The position numbers and the translations under genes are program-made. Positions 5,871-62,437 of a DNA stretch of 64,000 nt are shown here, piece by piece. How positions within the stretch are numbered: position 1 is the first letter of the stretch; every line of letters begins with the position of its first letter. Where the stretch lies: the IMG/VR virus record IMGVR_UViG_3300037312_000927. One strand, given 5' to 3'. Below the pieces are notes generated by a model, which searched no databases, was not told the DNA's origin, and was given only the letters and a program-made list of their open reading frames with translations. Source of the stretch: a virus.

Positions 5871-8800
5871 TCAAGGCATCTGATAACTGCCAGACGCGTA
5901 AACTGTAAATGCTCCCGTTGGAATTATCAGCTGTGAAGAAGTACCCGTATTAGTATAATATCCCCGGATTGCCCCTAGGCTATTAACCACAAGAGCGGGG
6001 TTTATCAGACCGAAATGGCCACCGGTTGTACTTGAGCCGCTTACCATTAAATCTACCATCGTCTCTGCGTTATTCGTGGAAGACGTAACAGTAGTCGGGA
6101 GTGAAACTTGAATCATACCCGTCCCGGTATGACCAGCACTGACGTCAAGTCTTATTTTAAAGAAAACTGTTTTACCCACTCTTCTATAACGACCATATTG
6201 AAGAGTATATGTCCCAGTGCCATTAGTGGATGAGCCTGTTACAACTGGGTTATAGCTAGTTTCAGTAGAATCGGACTCTTCGGATTGAAACGCACTAGTA
6301 AGATTATTTAGATTACATCTATAAAACTTATTAGTCGAAGGTGTTAATGTATGTGCTGATTCCTTCTGAATAGCCACTAACGTCTTACCGCTTGGTGATG
6401 TAAAATCAACCCCATCAAATGTAACTTTATTTGATGTCCCAGTATTGAAATCTACGGCGTTTGATGCACCGGCAGAACCGGTCCCACAATCTACAAATGC
6501 CCCTCTAAGGATATTAAAGTCATCCACGCTATATATGGACATACCATTACCCTCAGTGGATCCACACCGTATAAAACGATCGTTAAAAATCGTTACATTT
6601 ACGGTTTTCATATATCCGACCGAAGCCCCATACCCTACATCCGTCCAGGTATTATCACTTAGGTCTATACGTTTCCCGCAATATATATTGAAAGGTCTGC
6701 CGGTACTAGACTTAACTTTGTTGCCACTTACTATAACGTCGTTATCGAGGTCCGTAGTTGAGGAACTAACGTTGAAGTCATAAAAGAAAAATGCTCCAGT
6801 ACCAACATATCCTGTAGAGGAGTTATTTTCTATAGTGATATTCGTAGGTTTTGCAGTTACTGCAGCTGGCTGGTAGAACGAAATTTCTCCAGAGCTACCC
6901 CCATTATTATTAAAAGTGTTGTCTCTGATTCTAACGTTTTGGATAACGTGAAATGTGTTTGAATCAGGTTCGAAATCAATAGGACCTGGCATCGTGGATT
7001 TAGAACAGTTGCTGAAATCACAGGCTTCAATAGTAATCCCGTTAATGTCTATTAGACTAATGGCATTTCTATTTTCACGGGTGATACCATCAAATCTGCA
7101 ACGCTTTACGTATACATTCTGATTATGTCTTTCGTCCGTACCCGAGAATCCCGACCCTATATACAAGCCATCTCCACGGAACCCTTTAAAAAGCACATTT
7201 TCGATTAAGACATTGGAGACGCCATTAATAGCTACCAAATGTTTAAATTCTGAAAACCCATCTACATCAGTAGTTGCTCTGAGTTGAAAATTTTTAAGAG
7301 TTATATTTGTAATATTATTAGATATATTACTAGAACCACTATCACAAATAAATCCGTAATTCGCAGTATTAGGCATTTGTATGAGCGTGGTATCCCCATC
7401 ACCAAATATTTCAGTGTTAGACTTCAAGGATACTGAGCTAATAAGGTAAGTGCCTGCTGGTACGTATATCTTTCTAGAAGCAGCAATGGCTCTATTAAAC
7501 ATGGCAGTACTGTCAGTATCGGTGCTTACATAAAAGTAATTTACATTAGCTATACCGTTATACTGGCGTTTCCAACGTTTGCCGTTAGTGGATACGATGA
7601 TAGTACCCCCGTCGTCTACGGAAGTAATATCGGAGTCATCTCTAGTGAAGCTGCCCGAAATGCCTATATTACTAACGTATACAGACGTTCTAGGGCCTAC
7701 GTAATTCCTCAAAGCAGTATAATCTGCAAGTTGCAATGCATTTAACGAATCGGCAACAGTCTCAGTACCATTAGTTACTAGGCTAGCATCAGTGACACCA
7801 ACGGCCGCCGTGGATCTAGACAATACCTCGATAGCGCTCCCTGAAGGAGGGGCTTCACTGAATGTTAAAGTTCTACCGACGATGCTATATGTAGCCTTTT
7901 GCTGATAAGAAGCGTTGATATACACATCGGTAACCATAACTCCGACAGGAGCTTTAGCTAGAGTGAATACCGTCTTAGTACCATCTCCGGTAAAATCGTC
8001 CAAATTCACCGTATTTCTATCCGCACGAATTTGATCTAAAACTGCTTTAACGTTGGTGGGTGTAGTACCATCGTTAGGATTATAAATAGTCGTGGCAGCA
8101 TCCCCTGAACTAAATGGGATTTCATATTTAATGGTGACTTCTATTACAACCCCAGATATAGGGGCTTGGTCAAAAGTGAGAGTAGTACCTGTCGCAGTAT
8201 AAGATGCTTTTTGCTGATATACACCATCGAAATGGACGCTTACAACGGAATTTCCACTCACCGAAACCGGCAATGTATACGATGTCGTAGTACCGTCACC
8301 TACGAAAGTGGCTGCATATTGTGTCGCACGTCTATCTAGCTCTTCCTTTACGGTAGTCTGTGTAGAGCTACCCGCAGGGGTGTAGTTAACCCCCATAGAA
8401 TCCATAGTAGATAATGGAAGTTCTTTACGGATAACTACTTCTATAAGGGTATTATTAAGAGGGGCTTCCCCGAAAGTCAGAACTGTGCCATACGCCGTGT
8501 AGGAGTCTTTTTGTTGATAGGCACCATCAATATATACATCCAAACTATTGGAGGTAGAAACTGCCGTCGGGAGTACAAAGGTAGTAGCAGAGCCAGTCCC
8601 AGAATATCTGGCCACAGTAGCCGTACCACGTTCCTTTTTGAAGGTATCTAATGCGTCCTTTACATTTGAAACAATGAGACCATCGTCCGACAGATATTGT
8701 GTAGTAGCCGCATCAGAGGTACCGATAGGAAGGGCGTAGTTAACCGTTACCTCGATGCTTGCGCCAATACTCGGAGTTGAGTTAAGTGTCAAGCTCGTAC

Positions 8801-28319: not shown

Positions 28320-29972
28320 TTAATTGTATCCTGCGAAATTAGCTATGTCAAATAGGCTATGTTCCGACTTTGTTTCATCTACGGTAGTAAAGTTACCGGC
28401 CACTACCATCTGCGCTATGTTAGCAAATACTATTGAGTGGAACCAATCATCAAGGGCGCCATCATCTTTTCTGTACAGGCGTTTTCCGCTTAGACTTTCT
28501 TCTTCGAATATGCATAAGGCCTCTTGCCACACATCACAAGTAAGATCCCAACACGGGGTCTCTAATTTAGTTCTACCTATCTTAGCCTTAAGCATCATTG
28601 TATCCATAGCTTGAGTCCGGTCTGCGGCGTAGTAACCCCCTATCTTGTCCCATCGTAAAGTGTTCTTTGCACTTACGTAATTTACCATTGCTACTTTCTC
28701 ATCTCCGATGTGACTTTTGAACAATTGCCCTTGAAGAACACCGACTCCACGATCTGAGCCAATCATAGAACATTCAAACTGGTGATACAGTTGCTCTACC
28801 CTGGCGACCTGTTCAAGTATGTCTATGCCGTCCATGCGTTGTGAATATAACAGGTAGGCTTTACCAGCGTAGTCATAACCCAGAACGCTTACATTAGTGT
28901 AACTATTCGTTGATCCAGAGACACTCCAATCCACTCCAATGGTGGTCATGTAAATACCTCGACTATCTCTTGGAAAACCCTTATCCCATTCACGCTTCTC
29001 GGGATTACAACAGGCCATGGCCTCCCGGATGGATAGAATTCTACCACCTACCCCTGAAGGTAAGCCGAAGACCTCATTAGCGACTTTCTGTGCAGAGTAG
29101 GCTCCAGGTGCACCGATGTTACACTTTTCTCTAAGCTCTCTCCACTTTTTGGGTTTATTACGAGCGGGGAATATCAGCTGAGGTAGATGGAATCCGAAAT
29201 GATATTTCTCGGAGGGTTTTCCTGCAACCCACTGCCCCGTGGACATATTTAAAACTTTACCGCAGTATAGGCACCCTGGACCGTCGGGATTTTGAATCAT
29301 CTTCATGCAAGAGTCAAAATCTATGGGAATATTATATTTTCCACAGTGAGAACATTTAACAACCCACTCCAATTGATTACTGGCCTTAAAGAGAATGTTC
29401 AGGGTATTATTCTCTGTCTTAGCAGTTCCGGTATGTCGTATGAACCCATAATCAGAGGCGCCCATAGTTTCATGAATAATAGGGATGGCCTCAATGCTGA
29501 TATCCTGGCACTCATCGTAGAAGTTCTGATCGCTTGCAACCCCCCGGATACGGTCGGCGTCCTGTTCAGTTTGTGCGTACCCTAAGATTATACGTGCGCC
29601 TGTATTCAATGTTTTCTCGAATACATTTTTCTTATCTCTAGCACTAACGTAGTGTTTTTTAACAATAGGGGACTCAAAAAATGCATCCAGATATGCCGAA
29701 GAAAACCGTGAAGTTTGCTGTGCCAAAGGACTTATAAATAAGCTGACGAAGTGAGGCCTTAATATGCCATTTACTACTAACATGCCAGCCAATCCTACTG
29801 ATTTCCCGATTTGACGACCAGCAGAAATTGTAAGTTTAGGAGGGCTACAGTCATATATGAGTTTGAACGGGGCATATTCATCTAGATTAAGTGGCTTTCC
29901 TTTAAGCTGTAAAATTGCTACAGCCAACTCACTAGGTAAGAGTTTTAATGGTTGTTTTTTATCATTACTCAT
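28320..29972 (-). CDS. terL: Terminase large subunit (lambda gpA-like)
   Basis: Walker A SAGRQIGKS, IRG...YDECQD Walker B, CxxC...CxxC insert, RNase H-like IGVDW and DDWFHS. Confidence 0.9.
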   Translation of the reverse strand: MSNDKKQPLKLLPSELAVAILQLKGKPLNLDEYAPFKLIYDCSPPKLTISAGRQIGKSVGLAGMLVVNGILRPHFVSLFISPLAQQTSRFSSAYLDAFFESPIVKKHYVSARDKKNVFEKTLNTGARIILGYAQTEQDADRIRGVASDQNFYDECQDISIEAIPIIHETMGASDYGFIRHTGTAKTENNTLNILFKASNQLEWVVKCSHCGKYNIPIDFDSCMKMIQNPDGPGCLYCGKVLNMSTGQWVAGKPSEKYHFGFHLPQLIFPARNKPKKWRELREKCNIGAPGAYSAQKVANEVFGLPSGVGGRILSIREAMACCNPEKREWDKGFPRDSRGIYMTTIGVDWSVSGSTNSYTNVSVLGYDYAGKAYLLYSQRMDGIDILEQVARVEQLYHQFECSMIGSDRGVGVLQGQLFKSHIGDEKVAMVNYVSAKNTLRWDKIGGYYAADRTQAMDTMMLKAKIGRTKLETPCWDLTCDVWQEALCIFEEESLSGKRLYRKDDGALDDWFHSIVFANIAQMVVAGNFTTVDETKSEHSLFDIANFAGYN

Positions 29973-31104
29973 TTAAGTATTCTAATCTATATTTATTTCT
30001 AAACACTTTCGTAGGGTTTCTGAGCAACCGGTGGATACTAGGTCTAGAAATATCTAAAAACTCCCCGCAATCCTTTACCTTATCAAAAATCTTAGAAACT
30101 CCAGTGATTATGTCTACGACTCTAACTTTACTGCAGTTAGAATCCGTAATATACGGTTTAAATTCAGTCCCGTCGTCGTATTTCCAAAACATTCCTTTAG
30201 ATTTATTAGTACCCTTCCTACACTTTAGAGCGTCAATAATGCACGAGTAAGGATATCCTTGAGATTCAAGGAGGCTTAAATAATTGCCTGTGTAACGCTC
30301 TAAAACATCTCCCTTTTCGTTCAACCTCAATACTGGTTTAGTCCTAACTTTATTCAGAGGGGCGCCTGGGAAAGAACCTACTAACGAAAATATACGTTTT
30401 TTAACAGTGAAATATTTACGATTCAGATGTCTCGTAAACATCTTCATAGTTACTGACAGCTCGTTGAGTAAGGTGTTTAAATCTTTATGTTCATTAACCC
30501 TGTTACCTAAAAGATCCCACTCGTAAATAGTATAATTCTTAGAAAACCAGAATCTAATCCAAGATGCATCCGATGGCGTAAAGTCTTCTTTTAGAATATC
30601 CTCATTTTTTCCGGAAAATCTAACCTTGAAATCTGTTAGGGTTCGCTCAAAGTTCATGCAATTATATGTAATGGTTTGACCATCTATACATAAATTCTCA
30701 GAGGCCTCTTTAACTGAACTATAGGACTTGATCAATTTCCCTTCATTAGAATAAACATAAATAGCATCCGTAGCCTCTACAGTACTTTCTACAAACTTTG
30801 CCAAATTATACCGATAGCCCCCGCTATCAATCATCTCCTGTTCGAGGATCCTACTCTCGGCTTCAGTCTCTGTAACTTTATAAGTTATTGAGAAATTATC
30901 CGCACCATGCTTCTTAAAACTGTGTAACAGAAGTTTGTTACAATGATCCCCGGATCTAAGCTGTGCGGCATGAGCGATCAATCTCTTGTAAATGTTCTTG
31001 GAACTACCTACGTATTTGTCCCCGGTAACGTTGTTAATAATTTCATAAACACCACACTGTTTAGGGGCGTCTTTATAATTTTTATATTCAAGTACTCTAT
31101 CCAT
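29965..31104 (-). mobile_element. Free-standing GIY-YIG homing endonuclease with NUMOD1-like repeats
   Basis: CGVYEIIN---GDKYVGSS-NI-KR---H; repeated IY-Y---G--I--Y-S--EA units; AT-rich. Confidence 0.88.
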
Positions 31105-32752: not shown

Positions 32753-32760
32753 TGGTATAA
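32753..32760 (+). promoter_or_regulatory. Early promoter TGGTATAA of Ubl cassette
   Basis: Recurrent motif. Confidence 0.7.
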
Positions 32761-32845
32761 CAATATTGTAAGGGAATGCATATATTATGCTGACTCTTAC
32801 ACCCATCTTTTTACTAGTAAAACTTTAGCTAAGGAAACTAACCAT

Positions 32846-33271
32846 ATGACTACCGTCGCTCAAACCGTCCTGATCGTTACCTCGACCGACTCCGAATACA
32901 CCGTCCCGGGCGACATGACCGCTGCTCAGCTGGTCACCGCTTACTCGTCGCAGATCCCGGGCCTGTCGAGCATGACCTCGACCGAGCGCTATGAACAACG
33001 TGCCATCGGCCAAGTCCGCATCGTCACGTTCAGCCCCCGCACGGGCACCAAGGGTTCGACAGGTCCGGTTGCTCAGACCGTCCTGATCGTCACGTCGACG
33101 GACTCGGAATACACGGTTCCGGGCGATATGACGGCTGCCCAACTGGTGACGGCTTATTCGAGCCAGATCCCGGGCCTGTCGAGCATGACCTCGACCGAGC
33201 GTTATGAACAGCGTTCGATCGGCCAGGTCCGTATCGTCACCTTCAGCCCCCGCACGGGCACCAAAGGCTAA
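32846..33271 (+). CDS. Tandem di-ubiquitin-like protein (PRTRC protein C / Prok-Ub-like)
   Basis: Two 67-aa near-identical units each ending PRTGTKG; core MTAAQLVTAYSSQIPGL resembles PRTRC-C; adjacent E2, JAB, E1. Confidence 0.85.
   Translation: MTTVAQTVLIVTSTDSEYTVPGDMTAAQLVTAYSSQIPGLSSMTSTERYEQRAIGQVRIVTFSPRTGTKGSTGPVAQTVLIVTSTDSEYTVPGDMTAAQLVTAYSSQIPGLSSMTSTERYEQRSIGQVRIVTFSPRTGTKG
32855..33268 (+). repeat. 201-nt tandem duplication (32855-33055 / 33068-33268)
   Basis: About 23 synonymous and 1 non-synonymous codon differences by manual alignment. Confidence 0.9.
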
Positions 33272-33287
33272 TCAGCCTTAAGTAGTG

Positions 33288-33320
33288 AAACAGCCAGGTT
33301 TCAACTTGGCTGTTTTTTTT
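33288..33320 (+). terminator. Intrinsic terminator after Ubl gene
   Basis: AAACAGCCAGG...CTTGGCTGTTT + T-tract. Confidence 0.75.
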
Positions 33321-33345
33321 AGTTAACGTAACTTAGGGGAACACT

Positions 33346-34251
33346 ATGCAGAAAACACGAAGAGTGAACATCCTCAGTGGACTGACTCGTATCGTGGGTG
33401 AGATCCAGGCAGGCGTGAATAAGAAGTTTCAAGACTTCTATTTGAAATGTCTGCTTCAGCTCGGTTTGGTGACAAAGACGTTTAGCTATGATTTTGTGAT
33501 AGGGAATAATGGTTCCAGCTCCCATCGTAGATCGTTGAACAAACTCACCGGTCTCATTACAAAACAACTTCTGAAACTGAACCCGGCCGCAAACTTCGTG
33601 ACAGGGTCGTTTATTGATGGTAAACCCTCTGATCAATTTAAGATCAGTATCGGTGATACGGGATGGGTAAAGGATTACCCGTCATGGCGTCATGATAAGT
33701 TCGAGAAAATGAAGGCGAAGTTTCCGGAACTGTATGGTGACGCTCAAATAAACCATTTGTCTCTCGTTCACGGAACTTCCTTCGTAGAAATGTGGGCTCG
33801 TCTGAGCGACAAGTTCGGATGGGCGTATCGTTACTGCTCGTATCTAAACTATATGCTCAGAAAGCATTCAATCCCCCTACAAGCCAGTGTAGTGATCTCA
33901 GCGGATTCTGACTCTACCACGGACGAAAACGGGGTCAGGGTGCATCTATATAAACTCAATGCAACTATCATCTTCACTACAATGCAGTGGAGATGCAGGG
34001 ATTCCGACTCGGTAGCTCGGTATCGAGAAGTGCTCAACGGTGCGGAAGATGATTCACTTTTCTCAAATGATAACCTCTGGACTTCGGTTAATTTGCCCAA
34101 CAGCATTCGCCCAGGTTCGAGCAATTTCATCTATCGGAAGTTCCACATCAGTAAGGTGTTCATGCACCTGGATAAATCCCTGAAGATTTTGGAAACCTTA
34201 CTTAGGAAGGCAGATTATGGTGTTGGAGCATATACTCTCAGAGCTGAATAA
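33346..34251 (+). CDS. Uncharacterised protein inside Ubl cassette
   Basis: 301 aa, AGGGG SD; no motif recognised. Confidence 0.7.
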   Translation: MQKTRRVNILSGLTRIVGEIQAGVNKKFQDFYLKCLLQLGLVTKTFSYDFVIGNNGSSSHRRSLNKLTGLITKQLLKLNPAANFVTGSFIDGKPSDQFKISIGDTGWVKDYPSWRHDKFEKMKAKFPELYGDAQINHLSLVHGTSFVEMWARLSDKFGWAYRYCSYLNYMLRKHSIPLQASVVISADSDSTTDENGVRVHLYKLNATIIFTTMQWRCRDSDSVARYREVLNGAEDDSLFSNDNLWTSVNLPNSIRPGSSNFIYRKFHISKVFMHLDKSLKILETLLRKADYGVGAYTLRAE

Positions 34252-34480
34252 TTCGGTTTCCATCTCGGAACCTTATGAAAAGCTGTACAATCGGCACATC
34301 GCATTGGGACCCATTGTGGACGAGGAAAGCCTCGATGACCTAATCGATTTTGCCTGTGAGGCCCTGAATTTTAAAGGGTCAGATAATCTCCCCATTGTTG
34401 ATCTGAAGCTCATTGGGGTTCAGATCAAAGTTGCAAGAACTTTCATTAACACTGATTCTGAAGAGGACTTTTTCATATGA
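34217..34480 (+). CDS. Small acidic protein inside Ubl cassette
   Basis: AGGAAGG SD; ATGA-coupled to E2. Confidence 0.6.
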   Translation: MVLEHILSELNNSVSISEPYEKLYNRHIALGPIVDEESLDDLIDFACEALNFKGSDNLPIVDLKLIGVQIKVARTFINTDSEEDFFI

Positions 34481-35337
34481 ACGAAACCGAAACTATGGAA
34501 GCAGTTCAGCTTACCCCAATCGTCCAGGAAACTGAACCGGCAGCCGCTCCAGCAGTCCCGACTTTCGAACAAGCCGTGGAGGCTCAAGCCGGAGGTGCCT
34601 CTACGGTCGATGTTCTGAAACTGGAACTATTCAAAGACTACGCTGAAATCGACATGGGCAACAAGATCAAGAAGCAGATCTCCCATGAGACGCTACGAGA
34701 CATACTGAACAAAACCCTGAACACGGCTCAGCCCCAATCGGAAACGATTAAAGGTATGCTGATGCCGAGTAATGTGTTCTTCATGAGTCAGACGGCTAAC
34801 CGCCTCCATTTCAATACGTATTATTCCGGTGGTAAACGTAATATGTTGTACGGTGAACGCAAGATGGAAATCATGGCGCCGAACATCATCATCTCGTTTA
34901 CCCTCCGTAAGGATGGTTCGGACTGGATCATCGATTCTGAAGCTACGAAATACTTCTGTACCGATCTTCCGCTGAACAAACTGCCGAAGGACTTCATCAA
35001 CCAGATCAGTCATAAAGATGGTATCTATCTTCTTCCGATGAGTAACACCTATGACGAAGGTAAGATGTGCTACGGCAGTAACTCGATGCCTGCACGTTTT
35101 AAGGATAACAACTTCCGTGGCCTGGACTGGTATTTCCGCTATCTGTGGGAGACGCCGTTCAACAGCGATCTGGGCATTCGTGCGGTAGGTTCGATCGGAG
35201 TCAGTGATTGGTACGATCTTCTGGCTCGTACGGCTAAGGATAATAAGACCTTCCCGTACCGTGATCTGCGTGGCTGGAGAGAGATTGATGGTGCCATCCC
35301 TAGCACCTCAGAACTCGGCCGTGGCCGTGATCGCTAA
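34477..35337 (+). CDS. Prokaryotic E2-like conjugating enzyme (PRTRC protein B / E2 family D-like)
   Basis: LPMSNTYDEGKMCYG with candidate catalytic Cys, followed by LWETPFNSDL. Confidence 0.8.
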   Translation: MNETETMEAVQLTPIVQETEPAAAPAVPTFEQAVEAQAGGASTVDVLKLELFKDYAEIDMGNKIKKQISHETLRDILNKTLNTAQPQSETIKGMLMPSNVFFMSQTANRLHFNTYYSGGKRNMLYGERKMEIMAPNIIISFTLRKDGSDWIIDSEATKYFCTDLPLNKLPKDFINQISHKDGIYLLPMSNTYDEGKMCYGSNSMPARFKDNNFRGLDWYFRYLWETPFNSDLGIRAVGSIGVSDWYDLLARTAKDNKTFPYRDLRGWREIDGAIPSTSELGRGRDR

Positions 35338-35353
35338 ATAAAACGTAGTATTT

Positions 35354-35361
35354 TGGTATAA
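35354..35361 (+). promoter_or_regulatory. Early promoter TGGTATAA for JAB-E1
   Basis: Recurrent motif. Confidence 0.7.
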
Positions 35362-35419
35362 GAGCTAGGAGATGACCTCTCCTAGTTAATTTTAGTTAAC
35401 CCTTTATTTTGGAAAAATT

Positions 35420-36745
35420 ATGCACATTTTAGCACCTTCGATGAGCTGCATCTGCTTCCCTGGCGAAGTGCAAGACGCTATGGCACAAGGTTACAAACAA
35501 ATCTACGTTGCCACGACGCAAGGCATCTTCAAACATCACATCCTTCGTGGCGAGGGTCGCTATGTCCGTGTGAAGGTCGATAAAATCCCGGGCTACGAAG
35601 AGCCGAAGATCGAAGAAGCCATGAACTTCCTGCCGGCTGGTAAGGTCCCGTACGAACTGTACGAGCAAATTCTGGCCTTCTTCAAGAAAGTCATGGAAGT
35701 GAACACCTCGGAAGTCGAGGCAATGATTCACGTGCTGTACAATCCTGAGCAAGGTTATCACCTGGGCGTTCCTCCTCAGAAAATCAGCAAGGCAAGCGTA
35801 AGCTATGACTGGAACTACGTTCCGGCTGGCACGAGTATCGTGGTTGACATTCACAGCCACAATACGATGGGAGCCTTCTTCAGCGGCACCGACAACCGTG
35901 ACGATGCCCACAACATTTCGTACTCGGGTGTCTTCGGGAAGCTGAAAGATGCGGAACCTATGACTGTGTGGCGTTTCAACTACATGGACAAGAAATACGA
36001 GGCGAAAGCGTCCGATATTTTTGATACTCCCGCACGACCGGAAGTAGAGGTTCCTAAAGAATGGCTGGACAACGTTAAAGTGGAATCGTATCAATCCCAC
36101 TATAACGGAGGTTACAGTAACCGGGGAAACGTCGGAAAGTGGCAGGGTCACTCCGTGAGTGGTCCGAGCAATACTACCCTGACGAAGAACTCGTTACCAC
36201 AGGCAAAAAACGTAAGCCAAACCGTAAACAACAACGGAAAGGTAAATGAGGCTGTTTATTATCCCGGTCAAGATGAACTCGGGCTGGAAGGAGGTGGGTT
36301 CAACAGCTGGTCTGACGACGAGCTCGAAGACTACTTTCGTAACATTGGCCGGCGCGGTGTTTCTCATGCGTATGGAGTTAACGAAGCTCGGGGTATCATT
36401 CTTCCCGACGATGTTCCCGATCCGAATACTACCGTAACGGAAGATCCGGAGGCTGACACCTTGGGAAAGTCGAAGGGGGAGGGAGTGACCCCAAACAGCA
36501 TCATCTCCACTGATCCTGCTTACCTTGCCACGGCTGTCAAGTATGGTACTGACGTTGCTGATGCCTGGTATGATATCGGCAATTTGATGTGCAACCTCGA
36601 AGGTAAAGATGAACTTCTTAGTGAACTGATCCAAGATATGTTCGGTTTGACTTCCCCTTCCGAGCAACTCAAGGTTCTGCACTTGATGTACGATAACATG
36701 GATCCGGCCAGCCGGGAGAAGTTGGAAACCCAAGGGTTTGCTTAA
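35420..36745 (+). CDS. JAB/JAMM metallopeptidase (PRTRC protein A-like) with acidic C-terminal extension
   Basis: EVEAMIHV plus HSHNTMGAFFSGTD = E...HxHx7Sx2D JAMM motif. Confidence 0.88.
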   Translation: MHILAPSMSCICFPGEVQDAMAQGYKQIYVATTQGIFKHHILRGEGRYVRVKVDKIPGYEEPKIEEAMNFLPAGKVPYELYEQILAFFKKVMEVNTSEVEAMIHVLYNPEQGYHLGVPPQKISKASVSYDWNYVPAGTSIVVDIHSHNTMGAFFSGTDNRDDAHNISYSGVFGKLKDAEPMTVWRFNYMDKKYEAKASDIFDTPARPEVEVPKEWLDNVKVESYQSHYNGGYSNRGNVGKWQGHSVSGPSNTTLTKNSLPQAKNVSQTVNNNGKVNEAVYYPGQDELGLEGGGFNSWSDDELEDYFRNIGRRGVSHAYGVNEARGIILPDDVPDPNTTVTEDPEADTLGKSKGEGVTPNSIISTDPAYLATAVKYGTDVADAWYDIGNLMCNLEGKDELLSELIQDMFGLTSPSEQLKVLHLMYDNMDPASREKLETQGFA

Positions 36746-36795
36746 TAATCAATGTGAGGCGGGGTTCCCGCCCCGCTTCATTTGAAAGGATTTAA

Positions 36796-38154
36796 ATGTT
36801 TAGCTTTACCTCTAGCATAATTCCGAATAACGTCTTCGTTATCGGTGCGGGTGGAACAGGTGGTCGCTTGATCCCCTTGCTCAGCCAGTTCATGCGAAGC
36901 ATTACTCGTGGGGTGAGCCCTATGGGTTGGCTGGAATCTCCTAGAATCTGGCTGATCGATGACGACGTTGTGGAGCAGAAGAACTTGCTTCGTCAAAACT
37001 TCATTGACCGTGACGTCGGCAAGTACAAGGCTGCAGTTCTGGCCGAACGTTACACTCGGGCTTACAACGTTCCGGTGATCCCGATCATTCGTCGTATCGA
37101 AACGGGTTCGGCCCAAGAGTTCTACAAAGATGTGAACGACAACCTGTTCGTCATGAACGGTAACATCGACACGGTGAAGTTTAACAACATCATCGGCAGC
37201 AGTGTCGTCATCATCTGCGTCGACTCGGTCGAAGCACGTCGAGATATCCTGAACGTGTTTGTCACCGGCGATCAGCCTAATAAGACTATCTTCATCGATG
37301 CTGGTAACGAAGATAGTTTCGGCCAGGTGAGTTTCTTCACCTCATCGATTCTGCTTAGCCACAAGACGACCAGTGCAGCCCAGGAAATTCCGAAGCTGTG
37401 TCCGGTGTCAGCTGACGTTGATTTCATCCCGATCGACGTGGACTACTACCGGGGCCTGGTGGACACGCCGGCTCAAGGTAGCTGTGCGGATCTGAATCAA
37501 ACCCTGGCGATCAATGCTATCATGGCAACGACGATTATGGGCGTGGTGCAGAACTGCTTCTACCGTAAGCCTATGACCTATAACAAGGTCAGTATCAGTC
37601 TGGACGGGGGTAATCACACGACGTACAACACGTTCAACAATCTCAACAATGCCGGCATCTCTAAAGAGACCTGGCATAATGGGCGTAACGGGAGTCTGTA
37701 TTCCGAAGAACGTGAAGGTCGTCGGAAGTGTCTGGGGTTCGTCGGTCGAGCTCAGACACACGAGGCACGTGATCTGCGACAGACTCTTCTGGATAAGATG
37801 GAAGAGATCAATCGTCAGGCTGAACTGGCACGCCGTAAGGCTGCTGAGGAAGCTGAACGGGCAGCAGAGCAAGCTCGTATCAAGATCGTTGCCGATCGTA
37901 AGCGTGAAGAGATCCGTCGTATGGTAGAGGCGGCTCGTCAAGCACGGGAGACTCCGGTTGCCCCGACCTTGGCTGATGCAGTAGCGGTTGTGGCTAGTGC
38001 GGCAAGTGTTGTTGAGGTCCCGGCAGCTCCTCCTCCGCTGACTCCGGTTCGTCAACGTACCCGCCGAGTTGTAGAACTTGCTTTACCTCCCGCTGATGCA
38101 TATGTGGAGGGTGACGAGGACGACAACGAAGTGGATGAAGACGATCCTTATTAA
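36796..38154 (+). CDS. ThiF/E1-like activating enzyme (PRTRC ThiF-like) with coiled-coil/acidic tail
   Basis: VIGAGGTGG, IDDDVVEQKNLLRQNF, DVGKYKA, ICVDS--AR, IDAGN, GSCA-LNQTLAIN. Confidence 0.9.
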   Translation: MFSFTSSIIPNNVFVIGAGGTGGRLIPLLSQFMRSITRGVSPMGWLESPRIWLIDDDVVEQKNLLRQNFIDRDVGKYKAAVLAERYTRAYNVPVIPIIRRIETGSAQEFYKDVNDNLFVMNGNIDTVKFNNIIGSSVVIICVDSVEARRDILNVFVTGDQPNKTIFIDAGNEDSFGQVSFFTSSILLSHKTTSAAQEIPKLCPVSADVDFIPIDVDYYRGLVDTPAQGSCADLNQTLAINAIMATTIMGVVQNCFYRKPMTYNKVSISLDGGNHTTYNTFNNLNNAGISKETWHNGRNGSLYSEEREGRRKCLGFVGRAQTHEARDLRQTLLDKMEEINRQAELARRKAAEEAERAAEQARIKIVADRKREEIRRMVEAARQARETPVAPTLADAVAVVASAASVVEVPAAPPPLTPVRQRTRRVVELALPPADAYVEGDEDDNEVDEDDPY

Positions 38155-38156
38155 TG

Positions 38157-38189
38157 AAAAACCCAGGTTTCTATGCCTGGGTTTTTTTT
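38157..38189 (+). terminator. Intrinsic terminator closing Ubl cassette (possibly bidirectional)
   Basis: AAAACCCAGG...CCTGGGTTTT + T-tract. Confidence 0.75.
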
Positions 38190-38193
38190 AGCT

Positions 38194-38601
38194 TTACGAA
38201 GTCCGTTCTCGACTTGCAGTAGTCAAATTTTCCACTACATCAAAACTTGCTAAAGGAGTACCGTCTTGTCTAATCATATCCAACTTACCAAGTTGTTTAT
38301 CCCAAATCCAGCTGCCTAAGGCTTCATCTTCAAGATTTTTAAGAGAAGAATATATGCTCTTAGTAACCACTTCGATAAACGCTACTAAGTTATTGTTAAA
38401 GATGACACATTGACGACCTGTTATAGTAGGGTTGTATGTGACAATATAAATACCTGGGGTTGAAGATTCTACTACCGTAGTAGTAGCACTATCTACTACA
38501 GTGCCGTTATTAAGAACTGTTAACCCTGGATTAACCAATCCTGGATCGGCTTGGAAGTAGAGTTTTATAGTTTCGTTTATGGTTGCACTTGTATTAATCA
38601 T
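38194..38601 (-). CDS. Hypothetical (probable virion) protein
   Basis: Beta-rich; coupled in minus-strand operon. Confidence 0.55.
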   Translation of the reverse strand: MINTSATINETIKLYFQADPGLVNPGLTVLNNGTVVDSATTTVVESSTPGIYIVTYNPTITGRQCVIFNNNLVAFIEVVTKSIYSSLKNLEDEALGSWIWDKQLGKLDMIRQDGTPLASFDVVENLTTASRERTS

Positions 38602-39131
38602 AACTCGTCCATGTATTTGACGTATATTTCAATAGCCTTACGCTTATCATCTGTTTCTTGAGGAGTTTGACCCGGGACTAATGCATTAGCTGGCACAAAC
38701 GTAAAGGGATATACTGGCTCTGAATAACCTTCTTCTCTAAGTAGATAGGTTACGACCTCTACGATATCACTATTAGGTTCATTGAAACTACCTTTAGGCA
38801 CTTCCAAATTCTTAGACTCTTCAATGGCATAGGCCAATTCAAGGCTAGTAGGCAGTGGCAGGAACTCAAAGTCAGCGACCTTGTTATTCATTACATCTAC
38901 TGCGTGAAGAAAGAATGCCATATCACTATACAGAAGTTCAGGATCCTTTTCGATAGCCTGCAGCAAAGAGATCTTGTCACGGGTTAGTTCATCTAGAACG
39001 AGGCCTAACTCCAGGCTGATAGTTTCAAGTTCCCAATCCTTCCACATACCCGGCCCGAAGAGGCGATCAAGATTTCCCTTAATGTGGTGCAGGGGCGCAA
39101 GCCCCATGCTGTTATCTGAATCTTTAAACAT
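38598..39131 (-). CDS. Hypothetical protein
   Basis: Coupled in minus-strand operon. Confidence 0.6.
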   Translation of the reverse strand: MFKDSDNSMGLAPLHHIKGNLDRLFGPGMWKDWELETISLELGLVLDELTRDKISLLQAIEKDPELLYSDMAFFLHAVDVMNNKVADFEFLPLPTSLELAYAIEESKNLEVPKGSFNEPNSDIVEVVTYLLREEGYSEPVYPFTFVPANALVPGQTPQETDDKRKAIEIYVKYMDEL

Positions 39132-42245: not shown

Positions 42246-42253
42246 TGGTATAA
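42246..42253 (+). promoter_or_regulatory. Early promoter TGGTATAA of RT unit
   Basis: Recurrent motif. Confidence 0.7.
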
Positions 42254-61543: not shown

Positions 61544-62437
61544 TTAGAAGTCGACGACAATTGCACCGTTGACGTTACCGATACCCGAACCGATTGCTTC
61601 ATACGTACGGAACGAGATTTGGTCGCCTTCAGTCTTCAGGAACACGGTCGGTTCTTGCAGGCTGTAGAATTGACCCAGGTAATCCTCCGGAGCAAAGATG
61701 ATCGCACGGTTGGTCGGCAGGATGTCGGCCTTGTTCGTGGTGATAATCTTGTAGCCGAAGAAGTTGTTCAGGCTTTCTTCGCCGGTGAAGAACGCACCAG
61801 CCTTGTTGCTACCGATGGTCGTTGCCGGTTGAGCCAGCAGATCAGCGTACATCGATTGGGTCATCAGGATGCAACCAACCGGAAGTTTCTTAGCCAGCAG
61901 CTTTTTAACACCGTTCATCAGGTTGGGGATCGTGAAACCACCGGCGATGGTCGATACGTTGCTGTTAGCAGTAGCGATCGAAACGATGTTGTTGTAGAAG
62001 TTTTTATCTTCTTGCTCTTGCAGGTCCTTGACCGAGTTCTCTTGCAGGATCGTACGGATGTCAGTACGGTACGTAGCAAGTTCGAACTTCGACTTGGTGA
62101 AGGTATCCGACTCGATCTTCTGGAACGTCACAGGATAACGGGATCCGGTGAAGTAACGCAGTTTACCACGGCCCAGGAACGGCATGTTAGCTGCGACAGA
62201 GTCGATCTCTTTCTCAACGATAACAGTAGGTTCTTCAGTCAGTTGGCGATCCAGTTCCGAAGCAGTGATTTGAACCGGCTTCAGAATTTTACGGGTGAAA
62301 CCATCTTCACGCAGCTTTTGGCGAACGAAAGCCGACATTGCAGCGCCAGCTTCTTTAGTCATGCCTTGGTCAATTTTGTCCAGGAACGACTGGTTCAGGA
62401 ATTGGGTGTTGATACCCTCAGTGTTATATCCGCTCAT
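61544..62437 (-). CDS. Major capsid protein (HK97-fold)
   Basis: Strongest codon bias in window; KLREDGF-R-IL...VEKE; DLQ--ED--F helix; YEAIG-GI-N C-terminus. Confidence 0.85.
   Translation of the reverse strand: MSGYNTEGINTQFLNQSFLDKIDQGMTKEAGAAMSAFVRQKLREDGFTRKILKPVQITASELDRQLTEEPTVIVEKEIDSVAANMPFLGRGKLRYFTGSRYPVTFQKIESDTFTKSKFELATYRTDIRTILQENSVKDLQEQEDKNFYNNIVSIATANSNVSTIAGGFTIPNLMNGVKKLLAKKLPVGCILMTQSMYADLLAQPATTIGSNKAGAFFTGEESLNNFFGYKIITTNKADILPTNRAIIFAPEDYLGQFYSLQEPTVFLKTEGDQISFRTYEAIGSGIGNVNGAIVVDF

Follow-up and report, generated by a model that had tools for sequence, protein, structure and literature searches.

Six co-oriented plus-strand genes at positions 32846-38154 of a 64,000-nucleotide (nt) stretch of the IMG/VR virus record IMGVR_UViG_3300037312_000927 (this whole stretch is hereafter the window), inside the segment 32753-38189, probably constitute a phage-encoded ubiquitin-like (Ubl) protein conjugation system. 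We interpret it as a divergent relative, belonging to the core gene complement of a phage family, of the PRTRC systems, i.e., operon type 6d of Iyer, Burroughs and Aravind 2006, which was predicted from genomes (PMC1779556). The genes code, in order, for a Ubl, two clade-specific proteins that we term X and Y, an E2-like protein, a JAB/JAMM metallopeptidase, and an E1-like adenylating enzyme with a ThiF fold (Table 1). The original prediction for this DNA had described four co-oriented genes with intact catalytic motifs; every motif that it quoted is present and conserved, but the cassette comprises six genes, since X and Y lie between the Ubl and E2 genes.

The Ubl is a predicted β-grasp protein related to PRTRC protein C

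The Ubl gene product retrieved no match in PHROGs, as was the case for all ten proteins searched from the cassette and its flanks, and, at E-values up to 10, none in NCBIfam for either the window or its relatives, and a Ubl profile compared by sequence with solved structures returned chance-level rows alone (E 0.6 or worse). An AlphaFold2 model of a single Ubl unit, built from a 19-sequence alignment, has a predicted local distance difference test (pLDDT) score of 91.9 and displays four strands (residues 4-11, 16-21, 44-52, and 55-63), one helix (26-33), and a floppy C-terminal tail. In an exhaustive VIA-align comparison with 48,161 PDB representative chains, most of the top 50 rows are β-grasp proteins (Z 3.8-5.1), led by the TINCR Ubl (Z 5.1; root-mean-square deviation (rmsd) 2.6, 59 residues aligned) and MoaD (Z 5.0; rmsd 3.1, 59-61 aligned), with ubiquitin, Fubi, FAT10, ISG15, SUMO, and Urm1 among the others. 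Foldseek produced no row at E ≤0.001 in PDB or BFVD, and the top viral structural match of the model is the tip attachment protein J, a weak one. Based on the topology of the model and the VIA-align list, we accept a predicted β-grasp fold (ββ-α-ββ) with a tail ending in Gly, the fold on which the original prediction had made its interpretation depend.

Profile-profile comparison (hhalign) of 19 phage Ubl units with four plasmid PRTRC_C proteins gave a probability of 92.6% and E 4.4e-7, with the GxKG ends of the two sets aligned (RTGTKG in the phage versus R-A/G-V/A/L-G-A/T-K-G in the plasmid proteins). At the level of sequence comparison, this indicates that the phage Ubl unit is homologous to PRTRC protein C.

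The Ubl ORF (open reading frame) ends in GTKG, as had been noted, and in addition is a head-to-tail duplicate, in which the first unit passes into the second at a junction devoid of any spacer (...RTGTKG|STGPVAQ...RTGTKG-stop). The two units form a direct repeat of 200 nt, with a nucleotide identity of 86-87% and a protein identity of 98%; across their last 60 codons, they differ by 21 synonymous changes and a single nonsynonymous one, and the corresponding synonymous/nonsynonymous counts in three relatives are 28/0, 27/0, and 21/0. As synonymous differences so far exceed nonsynonymous ones, both units appear to have been selected as the same mature protein while their DNA diverged, a divergence that would also guard the repeat against recombinational loss. 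Relatives of the gene carry one (most), two, three (Vibrio phage D69), or five (locus L033) units, and some of the single-unit versions have short tails past GxKG. A Ubl-profile search of 1.84 billion cluster representatives recovered 149 proteins at E ≤0.001, in which hidden Markov model (HMM) domain counts give one unit in 112, two in 14, three in 12, four in three, and five in three; 95 of the 149 end exactly at GxKG, and 46 have extra residues, very often one cap residue. Multi-unit and capped genes follow the logic of polyubiquitin and thus imply cleavage after the terminal Gly, for which the JAMM peptidase of the same cassette is the obvious candidate. The Cupriavidus plasmid protein C has an eight-residue tail past GAKG, which suggests that it too is a precursor form.

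The mature Ubl unit (32846-33055) has a single lysine, the invariant K69 beside the terminal Gly; hence, chains, if formed, could grow only on K69 or on the N-terminus. Since trypsin would cut after K69, it would leave Gly alone as a remnant on targets, and the KG remnant that had been suggested as a mass spectrometry (MS) readout is not what a digest would yield. In the Salmonella phage Arash, gp251c (72 aa, 180500..180718) is annotated in the wrong frame; the real Ubl is a 66-aa protein ending in RRTGTKG (OQ632216.1, complement 180513..180713). Owing to this wrong-frame annotation, the modifier and its conjugates would have been undetectable in the published Arash proteomics.

The E2, JAB, and E1 components

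The best NCBIfam matches of the JAB, E2, and E1 proteins are, respectively, PRTRC_A (67.2 bits; cut-off 101.8), PRTRC_B (16.7 bits; cut-off 131.45), and PRTRC_ThiF (82.4 bits; cut-off 144.75), all well under the equivalog cut-offs. Their Pfam matches are to Prok-JAB (PF14464; 34.7 bits, cut-off 25), Prok-E2_D (PF14460; 27.1 bits, cut-off 25), and ThiF (PF00899; 45.2 bits, cut-off 28.1). The whole source genome contains exactly one ThiF and one Prok-JAB match.

The motif NTYDEGKMCYG, earlier pointed out in the E2-like protein, extends from N190 to G200, and P135 along with N190-x-Y192-x5-C198-x-G200 is invariant across 20-23 homologues, making C198 the candidate catalytic residue. The phage E2 proteins and PRTRC_B have in common the motif PxxN[TV][YW]xxGK[MIV]CxG. 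In a joint alignment, the phage proteins (FN[SDN]DLG) have S, D, or N at the position of the His in the F[TS]H motif of PRTRC_B. Type 6d was described as having an absolutely conserved His C-terminal to the E2 Cys, together with a fast-evolving helical protein (PMC1779556); no invariant His is seen past C198 in the phage E2 homologues.

The JAMM signature of the JAB protein is made up of E100, H145-S-H147, seven residues, S155, two residues, and D158, in keeping with the original prediction; among 20 homologues, E100, H145, S146, and H147 are invariant, and 90% or more retain S155 and D158. In two related loci, L019 (6876-9318) and L020, the JAB gene is split right past the HSH triad, with the N-terminal part ending in ...VDIHSH and the C-terminal part resuming with NTMGSFFSATD; the insert of about 1.1 kb holds an opposite-strand gene for a LAGLIDADG homing endonuclease (PF00961, 29.7 bits), and the interruption is either an intron or a split gene. 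The presence of a homing endonuclease within the HxH motif fits this site being strongly conserved DNA.

The E1-like protein is about 27% identical to plasmid PRTRC ThiF proteins (tblastn) and contains the previously listed GAGGTGG, NLLRQNF, and GSCA motifs. Fifteen homologues share G17xGGTG22, D55, D57, N63, R66, Q67, K78, D143, R148, and S229-C230 as invariant positions, and the profile aligns with the adenylation motifs of UBA3, UBA7, UBA1, and MccB. The protein thereby presents the canonical set of a Gly-rich nucleotide-binding loop, an Arg finger (N63-L-L-R66-Q67), K78, and the Mg-binding D143, with the invariant C230 of the S229-C230 pair as the sequence-based candidate for the catalytic Cys. 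In Vibrio phage D69 (OZ195729.1, L002:5979-6945), the E1 match begins at locus position 6001 and the annotated coding sequence (CDS) at 6190; the annotation also places a 30-aa CDS on the reverse strand across the N-terminal part. The E1 start was probably mis-called there, or the gene is frameshifted.

Both JAB (36020-36745) and E1 (37630-38154) have long C-terminal regions that plasmid PRTRC_A and PRTRC ThiF lack and that match nothing in Pfam. The last ~80 JAB residues are conserved between the window and its relatives; that of E1 is a variable, charged tail with a run of acidic residues at its end.

Table 1. Features of the Ubl cassette and an upstream phage gene (coordinates in the window; aa, amino acids)
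Feature	Coordinates	Strand	Remarks
Promoter-like TGGTATAA motif 5' of Ubl	32753-32760	+	Extended -10 type, tTTGGTATAAg; putative promoter
Ubl	32846-33271	+	141 aa; two head-to-tail units, each ending RTGTKG
Ubl unit 1, residues 1-70	32846-33055	+	Ends RTGTKG; compared by AlphaFold2, VIA-align, and hhalign versus PRTRC_C
Ubl unit 2, residues 71-141	33056-33271 (33056-33268 without stop)	+	Ends RTGTKG-stop
Terminator-like hairpin 3' of Ubl	33287-33316 (33287-33324 with T8 run)	+	13-pair stem
X	33346-34251	+	301 aa; clade-specific; holds the position of plasmid PRTRC_F
Y	34217-34480	+	87 aa; clade-specific; overlaps X by 35 nt and E2 by 4 nt (ATGA)
E2-like	34477-35337	+	286 aa; Prok-E2_D; candidate catalytic Cys198
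Second TGGTATAA motif, then 10-pair hairpin	35354-35387 (hairpin 35363-35387)	+	Between E2 and JAB
JAB/JAMM metallopeptidase	35420-36745	+	441 aa; PF14464; ~240-aa C-terminal extension
E1-like adenylating enzyme, ThiF fold	36796-38154	+	452 aa; PF00899; ~170-aa variable charged tail
Cassette-closing terminator-like hairpin	38156-38187 (38156-38195 with T run)	+	13-pair stem
Terminase-large-subunit-like	28320-29972	-	550 aa; GpA_ATPase 20.6 bits, under cut-off; ~3 kb upstream of cassette

The cassette is a fixed module of a family of large phages

The window derives from a 184,920-bp IMG/VR genome that CheckV rates as complete (100%). A megablast search of 50,697 phage records found no DNA-level relatives of the cassette; relatives emerged solely from protein-level searches, and include the Salmonella phage Arash (180.8 kb) and the Vibrio phages D69, D181, and D148 (~187 kb). 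A search with the E2 protein recovered 43 relatives, several of them on contigs of 177-188 kb, while scans of IMG/VR yielded 27 loci with the E2 alignment and three with the E1 protein. Synteny of the cassette, inclusive of the same two downstream genes, extends over the 27 IMG/VR loci as well as Arash and D69: every sufficiently long locus has the order Ubl, larger ORF (173-387 aa), small ORF (81-153 aa), E2, JAB, E1, and homologues of the window genes at 38194-38601 and 38598-39131 come next, on the opposite strand. Given this identical layout in all adequate loci, Arash, and D69, we regard the cassette as a fixed core module of the phage family rather than a recent insert.

In some relatives, JAB and E1 are separated by one or two additional small genes (L011:8427-8959, L012:8496-8714, L015:8149-8582). 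One of these codes for a conserved protein of 72-79 aa with a zinc-ribbon-like CxxC...CxxC spacing and the C-terminus GPRP[LM]N[TS][DN]SLV; it has no Pfam match and may be an accessory part of the cassette.

The phage itself is of the lytic type and uncultured, although cultured relatives exist. No tyrosine integrase was found in its genome, and ParB_N (PF02195) has zero matches across the full 184,920 bp, in line with the earlier remark that ParB is missing; likewise, none of the cassette ORFs matches a ParB model (the one of the PRTRC systems is TIGR03734). The major capsid gene (61544-62437) codes for a protein 55% identical to that of Arash. A gene for a GIY-YIG/NUMOD1 homing endonuclease (29965-31104, minus strand; PF01541, 36.5 bits) overlaps the terminase-like gene by 8 nt.

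X and Y as candidate specificity factors

In all 22 loci examined for this region, an ORF of 173-387 aa followed by a small one of 81-153 aa occupies the interval between Ubl and E2. X has no match in Pfam, NCBIfam (E up to 10, with its counterparts in relatives giving none either), PHROGs, or PADLOC, and a protein-atlas search gave no usable match. Its model (pLDDT 70.7) is of a mixed α/β type, for which Foldseek and VIA-align retrieved chance or single-helix matches alone and no informative PDB entry. An iterated HMM links 23 of the X-position ORFs (17 unique sequences), the Arash-type ones falling outside this set. An X-profile search of 5.8 billion proteins detected seven relatives, all devoid of Pfam domains, four on contigs of 181-193 kb and three on short contigs. 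Against PRTRC_F, hhalign assigned X a probability of 0.07%; a very remote relationship between the two may nevertheless exist.

Y and its counterparts in relatives have no NCBIfam match at E up to 10, and HMM iteration from the single sequence found nothing; the positional orthologues alone could be aligned, weakly, showing an N-terminal helix motif and a C-terminal EEDF[VI]. We considered the latter as a functional protein motif and dropped it as unproven, because the same codons also hold the Shine-Dalgarno sequence of E2 and the ATGA start/stop overlap.

The constant presence of X and Y and their translational coupling mark them as part of the system. As their place is always between Ubl and E2, their evolution is rapid, and they are confined to the clade, we propose that they might furnish its specificity, acting as an adaptor or an E3-like factor or being themselves the substrate.

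Expression signals point to an abundant Ubl

The promoter motif that the original prediction had noted at the cassette is recognizable as TGGTATAA, which occurs at 17 sites in the window versus 3.06 expected by shuffling (0 of 100 shuffles reached 17), among them one before Ubl (32753) and one before JAB (35354). The sites lie mostly on the plus strand (14/17), and their consensus, tTTGGTATAAg, resembles an extended -10 element. Members of this class include 31174, 31570, 32405, 32753, 35354, 42246, and 45423, with the site at 42246 preceding a reverse-transcriptase operon; many of the units with such sites come after hairpins ending in TTTTTTTAG. Together, the tTTGGTATAAg sites and TTTTTTTAG hairpins look like a phage-wide promoter/terminator grammar for non-structural genes, and the TGGTATAA class is distinct from the leftward structural operons. 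The cassette may be expressed early, and the second site with its hairpin (35354-35387) might act as an internal promoter or an attenuator.

Of 22 related loci, 20 have a hairpin followed by TTTTTTTTAG directly 3' of the Ubl gene, with unrelated stem sequences; since the position is kept while the stems differ, the post-Ubl terminator has good comparative support as a real element. The terminator that the original prediction had placed at the end of the cassette is recognizable as a hairpin with a T run.

The fraction of G or C at third codon positions (GC3) is 0.77 for Ubl, 0.57-0.58 for E2, JAB, and E1, and 0.50-0.51 for X and Y, versus 0.62 for the capsid gene and 0.28-0.45 for most other structural genes. 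The capsid-like bias toward C-ending codons that had been reported for Ubl, JAB, and E1 is thus evident, and no other gene measured in the window has a codon bias as extreme as that of Ubl. The GC3 of the Ubl gene, its own TGGTATAA site, and its terminator collectively suggest that the Ubl is very abundant and that the enzymes, produced by read-through and from the second site, are scarcer.

A model for the system and its alternatives

Precursor cleavage, adenylation, relay through Cys, and transfer to lysine are established chemistry of the E1, E2, and JAMM families. From this and the above features, we infer the chemical steps, precursor cleavage, level and timing of expression, roles of X and Y, and class of targets as follows. 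The Ubl would be transcribed from its own promoter-like site, with most transcripts ending at the hairpin behind it, leaving the Ubl in excess over the enzymes. The JAMM peptidase would cut the two-unit precursor after Gly70 and, in relatives, also trim one-residue caps or short tails to release units ending in ...RTGTKG. The E1, with ATP, would adenylate the terminal Gly and probably load the Ubl onto its own Cys230, whence it would pass to Cys198 of the E2 and then to a target lysine, with X and Y providing the specificity. The JAB protein may also reverse the tagging.

We favor a role in which the cassette tags abundant phage or host proteins in the normal infection cycle, rather than one as an optional anti-defense accessory, because the cassette is conserved as part of the core, and its Ubl gene has both a codon bias like that of the capsid gene and a dedicated terminator. 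More tentatively, and at a level of confidence that leans slightly to doubt, we envisage an obligatory high-flux pathway in which capsid-like amounts of Ubl are attached to abundant phage proteins (e.g., during virion assembly) or host proteins, with X/Y as a new type of E3 or adaptor.

The GenBank record of Arash labels the E1 and E2 homologues 'structural protein', a term that in the Arash paper denotes detection by MS in sucrose-gradient-purified particles (PMC10585845); their detection in particle preparations implies that these homologues are at least made. We considered packaging of E1 and E2 in the particles and rejected it as too weak, given the length of the particle list, the potential for carry-over, and the poor mapping of Gp numbers onto the GenBank tags.

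Several observations weigh against a conjugation system of this kind. The chemistry of the E2 could differ, because it has neither the classical HPN His nor the His of PRTRC_B. The Ubl ends in KG, not GG, goes unrecognized by any NCBIfam or Pfam Ubl model, and has modest structural matches (Z ~5, Foldseek E ~0.2), as is usual for a 70-residue domain. Neither an E3 nor a target was found, and the literature that could be searched contains no experimental test of any PRTRC-type system. Further, the particle list of Arash runs to 116 proteins, including metabolic enzymes, and its authors allow for carry-over of abundant proteins (PMC10585845). Finally, the related Bub pathway reportedly works via oxyesters, not thioesters (PMC11601596), which counsels caution in assuming a thioester relay.

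Among the alternatives, a counter-defense function fares best, though we consider it unlikely: tagging would inactivate host defense proteins, or the JAB would strip conjugates made by Bil or CBASS, with the Ubl, E1, and E2 as decoys or competitors. Host Ubl pathways (Bil and the type II CBASS Cap2/Cap3) are reported to be antiviral (PMC10557695, PMC10097602); plasmid PRTRC systems adjoin DNA methylase and establishment-region-type genes, hinting at a role on cell entry; and TGGTATAA-class sites precede many small plus-strand genes, as is often the case with early genes. However, anti-defense genes usually show patchy distributions in variable regions, whereas neither the location of the cassette nor its gene order varies among the relatives examined, all of which have it. 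Moreover, a full E1-E2-Ubl-protease set, with the Ubl at a predicted capsid-like level, exceeds what a decoy or deconjugase would need, and PADLOC offers no Bil or Cap3 match beyond four weak E1-E2 ones (see below).

Much less probable is a sulfur-carrier function, wherein a ThiS/MoaD/TtuB-like Ubl with a terminal thiocarboxylate would thiolate a nucleoside, DNA, or a cofactor, with no protein conjugation. Although MoaD ranks near the top of the structural matches of the Ubl (Z 5.0), ThiF and MoeB-type adenylyltransferases are the next matches of the E1 after PRTRC_ThiF among named NCBIfam families, and modification of nucleic acids is common in large phages, neither Pfam nor NCBIfam detects a rhodanese domain, a cysteine desulfurase, or a thiolation enzyme in the cassette. 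It always includes an E2-like protein with an invariant Cys, which sulfur-carrier systems do not need, and the multi-unit or capped precursors with a dedicated JAMM peptidase better fit a protein modifier. Least credible of all is that the cassette, in the manner of Bil, tags virion proteins of competing co-infecting phages and guards the replication niche: defense systems are known on phages and Bil-type systems reportedly conjugate Ubl to phage structural proteins (Hor et al. 2024), but fixed-position core conservation in a lytic-type family argues against an accessory role, there is no sequence affinity to Bil components, and the predicted Ubl level seems too high for use against an occasional competitor.

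Conjugation in the phage's own cycle, if true, would make this the first bacterial virus shown to encode a complete E1-E2-protease-Ubl cascade that serves the virus itself, and would give the PRTRC family its first function. Bacterial Ubl conjugation was recently established as antiviral (Bil, CBASS Cap2/Cap3); a virus with a full cascade as core equipment would reverse these roles. As the six-gene cassette is also present in the cultured Salmonella phage Arash and Vibrio phages D69, D148, and D181, the function of the whole PRTRC/6d lineage becomes directly testable.

Relationship to known systems

The PRTRC systems (TIGR03734-03742) are the closest comparison. As in the phage, their four core parts occur in the order Ubl (C), E2 (B), JAB (A), and ThiF-type E1; the Ubl is homologous with a GxKG end; the motif around the E2 Cys is common to both; a protein of ~300-380 aa lies between Ubl and E2, with some plasmid variants adding a small gene there; and both are carried by mobile elements. 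In the four annotated plasmid PRTRC loci used for comparison, the order is ParB-E-C-F-B-A-ThiF (Cupriavidus, Polaromonas) or E-C-small-340 aa-B-A-ThiF (Azospira, Sulfuricystis); E-C-F-B-A-ThiF is the order in plasmid loci L034 and L036, compared with Ubl-X-Y-E2-JAB-E1 in the window. The phage cassette differs in being a core module of a lytic-type phage, whereas PRTRC resides on plasmids and integrative and conjugative elements. It lacks ParB and a detectable PRTRC_E, and X shows no homology to the largely α-helical PRTRC_F. The phage E2 is without the F[TS]H His, JAB and E1 carry long extra C-termini, and the Ubl gene, often a tandem array, is not matched by the NCBIfam PRTRC_C model. Hence, the earlier statement that the gene set matches PRTRC stands as regards its closest curated relatives and gene order, but does not extend to membership: all three enzymes score far under the equivalog cut-offs, no counterpart of PRTRC_F or PRTRC_E is detectable, and the conserved His of PRTRC_B is replaced. 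In view of these differences in ParB, PRTRC_F, E2 His, and C-termini, together with the scores, we consider it a divergent phage variant of the PRTRC kind and not a member. The literature that could be searched yielded no paper describing a phage-borne PRTRC-type system.

The Bil (BilABCD) and Bub operons (PMC10557695, PMC11601603, PMC11601596) similarly combine Ubl, E2, JAB, and E1 in one operon and bear on phage-host conflict. Unlike the virus-encoded phage cassette, they are host-encoded, Bil being antiviral, and their multi-domain Ubls are described as single proteins with several β-grasp domains, not as arrays in which every unit terminates in the conjugation motif. The PADLOC models gave four weak E1-E2 matches to the E1 (E 2.5e-4 to 7e-3, ~37-41 residues each) and nothing for the Ubl, E2, or JAB, placing the cassette in neither Bil nor type II CBASS (Cap2-Cap3).

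An analogous use of the fold in phages is seen in the lambda/T1 tail assembly proteins I and K (Ubl plus JAB/NlpC), which offer a phage β-grasp protein with a conserved C-terminal Gly and a JAB predicted to release it (Iyer et al. 2006). That module, unlike the present one, has no E1 or E2; it belongs to the block of tail genes and does not constitute a conjugation system.

The architecture of the Ubl gene, on the other hand, is reminiscent of the eukaryotic polyubiquitin genes (UBI4, UBB, UBC): in the window, head-to-tail units follow each other in one frame with no spacer, the proteins are near-identical while synonymous sites have diverged, unit number varies, many relatives have a short cap, and a dedicated peptidase is encoded alongside in the phage. 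The phage units differ in their PRTRC_C-like fold family, in a GxKG rather than an RGG tail, in the uncapped last unit of the window, and in the likely processing enzyme, the JAMM metalloprotease of the same operon. Tandem and capped Ubl genes of this type would mean that the polyubiquitin design arose outside eukaryotes together with its own protease, which bears on the evolution of the ubiquitin system.

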